A stretch of DNA of 64,000 nt from Escherichia coli O157:H7 (GTDB taxonomy: Bacteria; Pseudomonadota; Gammaproteobacteria; Enterobacterales; Enterobacteriaceae): NCBI RefSeq assembly GCF_013167455.1, contig NZ_CP038328.1, one strand, 5' to 3'. Within the stretch, counting starts at the first letter, position 1. The number at the start of each line of letters is the position of its first letter. Below, one piece after another: positions 9,001-12,000 of this stretch. Position numbers: made by a program.

Positions 9001-12000
9001 TTGCTGTTTGTGCTGGCACCGATTTTCCTGTTGGGCGCATGGATTGCCACCAGCTCTGAACGCTCTTCTTATATCGGCACACAGATGGTGGTCACCTTCG
9101 CGCTCGCCACGCTCGAAAACGTTTTTGGTCCGGTGTACGACCTGGTGGAAATTCGCGATCGCGCCCTGGGTATCATCATTGGTACCGTGGTGTCTGCGGT
9201 GATTTACACCTTTGTCTGGCCTGAAAGTGAAGCGCGCACGCTGCCGCAAAAACTGGCTGGCGCGCTGGGTATGCTAAGTAAAGTAATGCGGATCCCACGC
9301 CAGCAGGAAGTCACGGCTCTGCGCACTTATCTGCAAATTCGTATAGGTCTGCATGCGGCGTTTAATGCCTGTGAAGAGATGTGCCAACGCGTGGCGCTGG
9401 AGCGTCAACTGGACAGCGAAGAACGCGCCTTACTGATTGAACGTTCGCAAACGGTTATTCATCAGGGCCGCGATCTTCTTCACGCCTAGGATGCCACCTG
9501 GAACTCGGCGCAGGCGCTGGATAACGCACTACAGCCGGACAAAGCAGGTCAGTTTGCCGACGCCCTGGAAAAATACGCTGCCGGTCTGGCAACCGCACTC
9601 AGCCGTTCTCCTCAAATAACGCTTGAAGAGACACCCGCCTCGCAGGCCATCCTGCCCACCTTATTAAAACAGGAGCAACACGTCTGCCAGCTTTTCGCCC
9701 GCTTGCCAGACTGGACAGCCCCGGCATTAACGCCCGCCACGGAACAGGCACAAGGAGCCACGCAATGATCAATCGTCAACTTTCACGTCTGCTGTTGTGC
9801 AGCATTCTCGGCAGCACGACGCTGATTTCCGGCTGTGCCCTGGTACGCAAGGATTCTGCGCCTCATCAACAGCTCAAACCGGAACAAATCAAACTGGCCG
9901 ATGATATTCATCTTGCCAGCTCCGGCTGGCCGCAGGCGCAGTGGTGGAAACAACTCAATGACCCGCAGCTGGATGCGCTGATCCAACGGACGCTAAGTGG
10001 TTCACACACCCTCGCCGAAGCGAAACTGCGGGAAGAAAAAGCGCAGTCCCAGGCCGATTTGTTAGATGCCGGTTCACAATTACAGGTCGCAGCGTTAGGG
10101 ATGCTCAACCGCCAACGCGTCTCGGCGAACGGCTTTTTAAGCCCTTATGCGATGGATGCGCCAGCACTGGGTATGGACGGGCCGTACTATACGGAAGCCA
10201 CAGTCGGTTTGTTTGCCGGACTGGATCTTGATTTGTGGGGTGTGCATCGCTCAGCGGTTACCGCCGCCATTGGCGCGCATAATGCCGCGCTGGCAGAAAC
10301 CGCAGCAGTAGAGCTATCGCTGACCACGGGCGTAGCGCAGCTTTATTACAGTATGCAGGCCAGCTATCAGATGCTCGATCTGTTAGAACAAACTCGCGAT
10401 GTGATTGATTACGCGGTGAAAGCGCACCAAAGTAAAGTGGCGCACGGTCTGGAAGCGCAAGTGCCTTTCCACGGCGCGCGGGCACAGATTCTGGCGGTCG
10501 ATAAACAAATTGCTGCCGTTAAAGGGCAAATCACCGAAACGCGAGAATCTCTGCGTGCATTGATTGGCGCGGGAGCCAGCGATATGCCGGAGATCAAACC
10601 AGTGGCATTACCACGAGTCCAGACCGGTATTCCGGCGACACTCTCTTATGAGTTGCTCGCCAGACGCCCGGATCTGCAAGCCATGCGCTGGTATGTTCAG
10701 GCGTCATTAGATCAGGTGGATTCCGCGCGGGCGCTGTTCTACCCAAGCTTTGATATCAAAGCGTTTTTCGGTCTGGACTCCATCCACCTGGATACCTTAT
10801 TCAAAAAAACCAGTCGCCAGTTCAACTTCATCCCGGGTCTGAAATTGCCGCTGTTTGACGGTGGACGGTTGAATGCCAATCTCGAAGGCACTCGCGCCGC
10901 CAGCAACATGATGATTGAACGTTACAACCAGTCAGTACTGAACGCGGTGCGTGACGTTGCCGTCAACGGCACGCGTCTGCAAACGCTCAACGACGAGCGA
11001 GAAATGCAGGCTGAACGCGTGGAAGCAACGCGCTTCACCCAGCGCGCTGCCGAGGCCGCCTATCAGCGCGGCTTAACCAGCCGCTTACAGGCTACCGAAG
11101 CCCGGTTGCCGGTGCTTGCCGAAGAGATGTCATTACTGATGCTGGACAGCCGCCGGGTGATCCAAAGCATTCAGTTGATGAAATCGCTGGGCAGCGGGTA
11201 TCAGGCGGCTCCCGTCGTCGAGAAAAAATAAAATGTCTGCCGTGTGATGGCTGTCACGCGGTATTTCGTTTCGTCACGTCAAAACTGACGACAGCCTGTT
11301 TTTCGTCAGAGTTTTGAATAAATAGTGCCCGTAATATCAGGGAATGACCCCAAATAAAATGTGGCATAAAAGATGCATACTGTAGTCGAGAGCGCGTATG
11401 CGTGATTTGATTAACTGGAGCGAGACCGATGAAAAAAGTCGTCACGGTTTGCCCCTATTGCGCATCAGGTTGCAAAATCAACCTGGTCGTCGATAACGGC
11501 AAAATCGTCCGGGCGGAGGCAGCGCAGGGGAAAACCAACCAGGGTACCCTGTGTCTGAAGGGTTATTATGGCTGGGACTTCATTAACGATACCCAGATCC
11601 TGACCCCGCGCCTGAAAACCCCCATGATCCGTCGCCAGCGTGGCGGCAAACTCGAACCTGTTTCCTGGGATGAGGCACTGAATTACGTTGCCGAGCGCCT
11701 GAGCGCCATCAAAGAGAAGTACGGTCCGGATGCCATCCAGACGACCGGCTCCTCGCGTGGTACGGGTAACGAAACCAACTATGTAATGCAAAAATTTGCG
11801 CGCGCCGTTATTGGTACCAATAACGTTGACTGCTGCGCTCGTGTCTGACACGGCCCATCGGTTGCAGGTCTGCACCAATCGGTCGGTAATGGCGCAATGA
11901 GCAATGCTATTAACGAAATTGATAATACCGATTTAGTGTTCGTTTTCGGGTACAACCCGGCGGATTCCCACCCAATCGTGGCGAATCACGTAATTAACGC

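Follow-up and report, generated by a model that had tools for sequence, protein, structure and literature searches.

The window, by which we mean the whole stretch of 64,000 nucleotides that was analysed, carries the gene fdhF for formate dehydrogenase H (FDH-H) at positions 11429..13576, and this gene and all of the features described below lie on the + strand. Within the formate hydrogenlyase complex FDH-H is the molybdenum enzyme, and it belongs to the Mo-bis-PGD oxidoreductases. Translation of 11429-13576 gives 715 codons and a terminal stop, and the only internal stop is found at codon 140, a TGA at 11846-11848. The TGA is separated from the ATG at 11429 by 417 nt or 139 codons ((11846-11429)/3 = 139) and is in frame with it. 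The first-pass annotation had proposed an in-frame UGA at 11846-11848 within a frame running to 13576, which was borne out by the sequence and its translation. It had also warned that naive ORF calling splits fdhF into 11429-11848 and 11897-13576, and exactly these two are present in a mechanical ORF list, as 11429..11848 (139 aa) and 11897..13576 (559 aa). Both are in the same frame, and the second opens at the first ATG past the TGA.

Upstream of the gene, a GGAG motif at 11417..11420, located 8 nt 5' of the start codon, was read from the sequence and resembles a Shine-Dalgarno element, a function it probably serves. Farther upstream, and outside the recoding signal, a pattern match identified a sigma-54-type -24/-12 promoter-like motif, TGGCATAAAAGATGCA, at 11362..11377. 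The pattern used, TGGCAYNNNNNWTGCW, had this single match in the window, the chance expectation being 0.58 matches. We take the motif to be the known sigma-54/FhlA-dependent promoter of fdhF.

The product of the joined frame, in which the stop was replaced by a placeholder, was 714/715 identical to PDB entry 1AA6, gapless over residues 1-715 of 715. The sole difference is residue 619, which is serine in the window protein and glycine in the crystallised K-12 enzyme. The non-standard residue X140 of the 1AA6 chain aligns with the UGA of the window and is followed by histidine (His141); residue 140 of the crystallised enzyme is selenocysteine, and molybdenum is bound in FDH-H by this Sec140. Other matching structures were 1FDI, 1FDO, 2IV2 and 7Z0T, all described as "formate dehydrogenase H". 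The four-cysteine motif for a 4Fe-4S cluster is present N-terminally (C8, C11, C15 and C42), as it is in 1AA6. In addition, the NCBIfam equivalog model TIGR01591 (formate dehydrogenase subunit alpha) was matched with 1094.7 bits, its cutoff being 666.25, and residues 6-685 lie on profile positions 1-672 of 672 in one stretch across the UGA. The window protein is thus like known FdhF (1AA6, 1FDO, 2IV2, 7Z0T; TIGR01591) over all 715 residues, only G619S setting it apart, and the assignment of the gene to fdhF was upheld by this identity, by the non-standard residue at 140 and by the TIGR01591 score. With 714 of 715 residues identical to those of a characterised enzyme, the protein would be expected to oxidise formate within the formate hydrogenlyase complex.

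The alpha subunit of formate dehydrogenase N (FDH-N; FdnG) was also considered, and its model TIGR01553 gave 245.9 bits, far short of the cutoff of 814.2, so that the protein is FDH-H. In some RefSeq records the same gene is labelled "formate dehydrogenase N subunit alpha"; this is a naming inconsistency and reflects no biological difference.

If the UGA were a true stop, the gene would be split or inactivated, leaving a 139-residue fragment and perhaps a separate 559-residue protein started from the ATG at 11897. A mechanical ORF caller does yield precisely this pair, and since only 30-40% of ribosomes recode the codon (PMC4513850), some 139-residue product does arise alongside the full-length protein. 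Nonetheless, the frame is conserved across the UGA, with TIGR01591 running through residues 6-685 without a break, the TGA and the next 40 nt are invariant across E. coli, the site is under a constraint at the RNA level (described below) that is not expected of a dead gene, and no pseudogene flag is attached to the gene in RefSeq. Furthermore, the solved structure is a single chain of 715 residues, with Sec at position 140. Full-length, selenium-containing FdhF has already been demonstrated in E. coli K-12. A true stop is the strongest of the alternatives to recoding, and we still regard it as very improbable.

The RNA element expected of a selenocysteine codon was found at the UGA. The Rfam model SECIS_2 (RF01988) covers 11841-11895 on the + strand with 87.1 bits (gathering score 70, E = 8.5e-19), and the match is full length, from model position 1 to 55 of 55. 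A SECIS stem-loop had been predicted to follow the UGA, and this was confirmed by the SECIS_2 score and by the folding of the 48 nt at 11846-11893 into a stem-loop whose apical loop is GGUC. As for its extent, a stem-loop does lie within the originally proposed span of 11846-11893, but the conserved element as defined by the covariance model is slightly wider (11841..11895), since it includes an outer helix, formed by 11841-11845 with 11891-11895, that encloses the UGA. The upper hairpin, GGUUGCAGGUCUGCACC, seen in the sequence and by folding at 11860..11876, begins 11 nt past the UGA and corresponds to the minimal SelB-binding part, positions 15-31 counted from the U of the UGA. It carries the apical loop GGUC (G22-G23-U24-C25) at 11867..11870, in which G23 is 11868 and U24 is 11869, and a bulged U17 in the upper stem at 11862; the loop occupies the invariant alignment columns 27-30 and the bulge the invariant column 22.

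The E. coli fdhF SECIS was described as an element of 40 nt, with a 17-nt upper stem-loop at positions 15-31 that is separated from the UGA by 11 nt, in which U17 is bulged and the loop bases G23 and U24 were reported as SelB contacts (PMC8659212). The window element is arranged as the literature gives for this SECIS. Compared with fdhF of K-12, the window shares the UGA at codon 140, the 17-nt hairpin, the GGUC loop, the bulged U17 and the 11-nt spacing; the recoding element shows no difference at all, and only residue 619 of the protein differs. The hairpin sits inside the coding sequence, spanning codons 141-153 and beyond, and because of this location about 14 codons are under protein and RNA constraint at once. 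An overlapping match to another Rfam family, SECIS_3 (RF01989), reached 35.8 bits and fell short of that family's gathering score of 63. SECIS_3 and the SECIS elements of other bacterial selenoprotein genes share with the window element the principle of an in-frame UGA with a hairpin immediately downstream, but the overlap with SECIS_3 is weak and the window element belongs to SECIS_2.

Folding the sequence downstream of the UGA had been suggested as a check. A hairpin was indeed formed, but its energy was uninformative and the check was not decisive: the fold energy of 11846-11893 was -14.9 kcal/mol (z = -0.67), and 49 of 200 shuffled sequences were as stable, so the hairpin is not more stable than expected from its composition. 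Over the same 48 nt the mean fold energy, among the matches listed in the survey described below, was -14.1 kcal/mol for genes with UGA and -15.9 kcal/mol for homologues with a cysteine codon, which lack a SECIS and are at least as stable. Fold energy was for these reasons set aside as evidence. Stability is not a defining criterion for a SECIS in Rfam or in the literature, and so the low stability of the hairpin does not count against its membership in SECIS_2; with a fold energy not beyond chance, the reality of the SECIS rests on the covariance model and on comparative data.

Comparative data came from a scan in which each GTDB species was represented by a single genome; the back-translated motif C-A-R-V-[U/C]-H-G-P gave at least 120 loci. 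Among the matches listed, at least 52 had TGA at the variable position (Sec-type) and at least 68 had TGC or TGT (Cys-type). Six chance hits outside formate dehydrogenase genes (L022, L033, L041, L050, L058 and L103) were removed after translation, and at least 61 of the at least 68 TGC/TGT matches passed the filter for an FdhF-like translation. The Cys-type paralogues, from Enterobacterales and other bacteria, are members of the same family with a near-identical peptide (C-A-R-V-[U/C]-H-G-P-S-V-A-G-L), and often share a genome with a Sec-type copy. It had been stated that a cysteine or other sense codon at the homologous position, together with a downstream frame that is not conserved, would speak against recoding. 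The comparison was run and the opposite was found: E. coli, E. albertii and at least 50 other Sec-type genes have TGA at the homologous codon, and the downstream frame is conserved. Among the matches listed, TGA was present in 52/52 Sec-type sequences that passed the filter, the window included.

As the codons flanking the UGA were fixed by the search pattern, their conservation is uninformative. The codons beyond them behave very differently in the two types of gene. Among the matches listed, the 48 Sec-type genes that encode HGPSVAGL do so with only 6 distinct 24-nt sequences, in which the codons GCA GGT CTG are invariant (48/48), whereas the 49 Cys-type genes encoding the same peptide use 49 distinct sequences. 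A similar difference was seen in third-position entropy, computed among sequences with the majority residue. In 50 Sec-type genes from the matches listed, the entropy was 1.09 bit in the 5' flank, dropped to 0.46 bit over codons +1 to +14 and was 1.02 bit in the 3' flank, while in 50 Cys-type genes from the same matches the corresponding values were 1.18, 1.35 and 1.13 bit. Limiting the comparison to the 18 genomes among the matches listed that hold both types gave 0.82, 0.29 and 0.92 bit for the Sec-type genes and 1.08, 1.29 and 1.04 bit for the Cys-type genes. Because each of these genomes contributes one gene of each type, this second comparison is free of any difference in species sampling.

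The SECIS_2 model follows the same division, as it reached its gathering score on 8/8 enterobacterial Sec-type loci and on 0/8 Cys-type loci from the same genomes. On a Haemophilus Sec-type locus (L005) SECIS_2 stayed below the gathering score; the model is narrow, and a negative result with it elsewhere would therefore not exclude a SECIS. In short, the Cys-type paralogues have TGC or TGT for TGA, vary freely in their synonymous codons downstream and have no SECIS_2 match, and the window gene is of the Sec type. On this comparison the RNA is under selection that exceeds the needs of the protein, and only in genes with UGA. While no discovery, the comparison of the two types provides a clean illustration of RNA constraint within a coding sequence.

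The base pairing of the element was examined in an alignment of 32 distinct 55-nt Sec-type sequences, drawn from the matches listed. In the SECIS structure 91.7% of the cells were paired, versus 22-47% when the 3' partners were slid by 1-3 columns. U17, G23 and U24 are invariant in the 32 distinct sequences, as is the GGUC loop, which was retained even in a distant sequence from the Coriobacteriales. This Coriobacteriales Sec-type gene (L105) has another hairpin sequence, with GGUC kept at the same distance from the UGA. Two pairs of the upper stem were found to covary. G15-C31 is replaced by U-A in six sequences and by U-G in a seventh, that of L105, and U18-A29 is replaced by A-U in six sequences, a compensatory change. 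The six covarying sequences all belong to the Pasteurellaceae (Haemophilus, Actinobacillus, Necropsobacter, Aggregatibacter, Pasteurella and Bisgaard taxon 45), and the compensatory changes may thus represent one evolutionary event per pair. When counted over the alignment, pairs changed on both sides were not more numerous than in a shuffle control, where 202/500 shuffles reached the same count. In the same Pasteurellaceae the protein has Leu-Lys in place of His-Gln, a change with which the protein accommodates the RNA.

The pairing of U17 and U18 was considered in two registers. RNAfold and Rfam give a register in which U17 is paired and U18 forms the bulge; it was rejected, as it leaves 7 unpaired cells where the register of the literature has 6 compensatory ones. 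The comparative data favour a bulged U17 with U18 paired to A29, as described experimentally, with all of the support coming from the Pasteurellaceae. The outer helix (11841-11845 with 11891-11895) is 98.8% paired in the 32 sequences, and the only changes seen in it are one-sided, from G-C to G-U. It is conceivable that this helix acts on its own, for example by slowing the ribosome or by shielding the UGA from release factor 2, and that the Ser619 variant of the window lineage alters the enzyme. Even taken jointly we consider these two possibilities unlikely; that concerning Ser619 is a minor one, and with either of them the overall picture would stay the same.

Recoding also depends on genes located elsewhere in the genome. 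No tRNA gene was found within the 64,000-nt window. The gene for tRNA-Sec (selC) is present in 5424/5426 E. coli genomes, where the match carries the annotation "tRNA-Sec"; the E. coli sequence that served as query was confirmed by the search to be this annotated gene. In NZ_AP018488.1 the tRNA-Sec gene and an identical fdhF site occur together. The selB-selA operon, queried with the MG1655 sequence, was found in 5425/5426 E. coli genomes, and by this search selAB is located outside the window.

Together these results lead us to read the locus as fdhF of an Escherichia coli close to O157, in which UGA140 is translated as selenocysteine under the direction of the downstream hairpin, a reading to which we give a probability of about 0.98. 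The mRNA directly 3' of the UGA would fold into a bacterial SECIS hairpin, and SelB, carrying GTP and Sec-tRNA(Sec), would, according to the literature, bind the upper part of it. The tRNA(Sec) would be the selC product, its serine being converted to selenocysteine by SelA with selenophosphate supplied by SelD. By the time the ribosome brings the UGA into its A site it would have melted the lower stem, and the tethered SelB complex could then compete with release factor 2 and deliver Sec-tRNA(Sec), after which translation would continue in the same frame to 13576. SelB binding, the mechanism of delivery and the efficiency of recoding are here taken over from the literature, and may be presumed to hold for the window gene by analogy. 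In a reporter containing fdhF codons 130-179, recoding was 30-40% in vivo and about 40% in vitro, the other ribosomes terminating at the UGA (PMC4513850).

It could also be proposed that the UGA is passed mainly without the SECIS, either by near-cognate read-through with insertion of tryptophan or cysteine or by a frameshift, and not by SelB-mediated insertion of selenocysteine. The sequence by itself proves no particular inserted residue, and a UGA followed by C is a weak termination context. A frameshift is excluded, since the frame is unchanged at the UGA. Read-through of this kind is at odds with a downstream RNA element whose conservation is limited to genes with UGA at this codon, with the retention of the genes for SelB, SelA and tRNA-Sec in essentially all E. 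coli genomes, and with the crystal structure 1AA6, where residue 140 is selenocysteine. We consider it even less probable than a true stop, and SelB-mediated insertion of selenocysteine remains the reading that we adopt.

Within E. coli the site is almost without variation. Several E. coli O157 chromosomes are 100% identical to the DNA of 11300-13700, which has a match in 5419/5426 complete E. coli genomes; in 1146 E. coli records the whole gene is 95-99% identical. The 181 nt around the UGA are identical to those of K-12 MG1655 and DH10B, and are at least 99% identical in 5413/5420 E. coli records. The most divergent E. coli copy, that of strain 14EC007, differs at 5 of the 181 nt, none of them between the UGA and +44. 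The two changes that lie nearest are one at 11842, a synonymous U-to-C in the codon for Arg138 by which an outer-helix pair U-G becomes C-G, and one at 11890, which falls in an unpaired stretch. Such uniformity over thousands of independent assemblies, the TGA in Sec-type orthologues of many genera, and the presence here of a SECIS that is restricted to TGA genes leave the remaining alternative, that a cysteine codon (TGC or TGT) stands here and was turned into TGA by an error of sequencing or assembly, as the least likely of all, common as Cys-type homologues are (at least 68 of at least 120 matches with TGC/TGT, at least 61 of which pass the filter).

The site had been described from the outset as the selenocysteine recoding site of fdhF and as known biology, and both descriptions hold, given its membership in SECIS_2, the identity of the product with FDH-H and the single coding sequence in RefSeq. 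It is already known as the prototype of such sites in bacteria, with an annotation in RefSeq and a model in Rfam. Among bacterial genes with selenocysteine insertion fdhF is the founding example, and its SECIS has become the standard tool of selenoprotein engineering. The relevance claimed for the site was that it matters for correct annotation, with which we agree, and we see no value in it beyond this. Gene callers for which UGA is always a stop report two fragments or a pseudogene, where the correct result is one coding sequence for a selenoprotein of 715 residues (11429..13576) with the two ORFs merged and the UGA at 11846..11848 decoded as Sec140. In genomes that are identical to the window, RefSeq does have one fdhF coding sequence over the UGA. 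In the O157 strain FDAARGOS_293 it is a single fdhF coding sequence equivalent to 11429-13576. In the same strain the genes mdtNOP lie upstream of fdhF, and yjcO, gltP and nrfGFEDCBA lie downstream of it.

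The fdhF gene (11429-13576, + strand, 715 codons) carries different PGAP product names in different RefSeq records of the same gene, namely 'formate dehydrogenase N subunit alpha, selenocysteine-containing', 'formate dehydrogenase H subunit alpha, selenocysteine-containing' or simply 'formate dehydrogenase subunit alpha'. The protein is formate dehydrogenase H (FDH-H); an FDH-N identity was rejected, as the product scored far under the cutoff of the FDH-N model (TIGR01553). Across its 715 residues the only mismatch to the crystallised K-12 enzyme (PDB 1AA6) was found at codon 619 (13283-13285), which encodes Ser in place of Gly619. 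A sigma-54-type -24/-12 motif, TGGCATAAAAGATGCA (11362-11377, + strand), precedes the start codon of fdhF by 52 nt. No second match occurs in the window, but chance alone would give 0.58. The motif agrees with the known sigma-54/FhlA-dependent fdhF promoter.

Among the loci collected by the one-genome-per-species scan, six Sec-type genes, having TGA at the critical codon (L027, L057, L076, L082, L109 and L120, from the genera Morganella, Providencia, Hafnia, Edwardsiella and Proteus), carry G instead of C at position 30, counted from the U of the UGA, which alters the protein from His-Gln to Gln-Arg. The G at this position breaks the G16-C30 pair as drawn, giving 4 unpaired cells, and RNAfold placed the upper stem of these genes in a shifted position. 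A distant Sec-type formate dehydrogenase gene in a Coriobacteriales MAG (L105, around position 734) is followed by a hairpin that differs in sequence from that of E. coli fdhF, but in which GGUC is kept at an equal distance from the UGA.

Sec-type and Cys-type fdhF-like genes, the latter with TGC or TGT at the critical codon, were present together in at least 18 genomes among the matches listed in the loci scan (the pairs L003/L004, L006/L007, L010/L011 and L015/L016, and 14 more). Most of these genomes belong to Enterobacterales isolates and the remainder are MAGs; Pluralibacter gergoviae has three copies, two of them Sec-type and one Cys-type. In the 64-kb window only the Sec type occurs.

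Other RNA elements scoring over the Rfam gathering score in the window were the Hfq-binding sRNA sraL (32268-32408, + strand, 153.3 bits) and two REP-type naRNA4 elements (14364-14434 and 24956-25027, both on the - strand), one of which immediately follows yjcO. In an Enterobacter MAG (L023) a sok antitoxin RNA of the hok/sok type (1933-2081, - strand) lies about 1.9 kb from fdhF.

A lambdoid prophage containing integrase, tail and EspS-like effector genes adjoins dusA at about 48700-64000; the complete genome best matching this part was that of the O145:NM strain FWSEC0002 (99.1%), so none of the top RefSeq hits corresponds exactly to the source strain. Collinearity of the window with the O157 strain FDAARGOS_293 holds to 50253, beyond which the two differ. 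Register between them is also lost at about 27180, in the actP-espX5 intergenic region, and this looks like a small indel immediately 5' of espX5, which encodes a T3SS effector.
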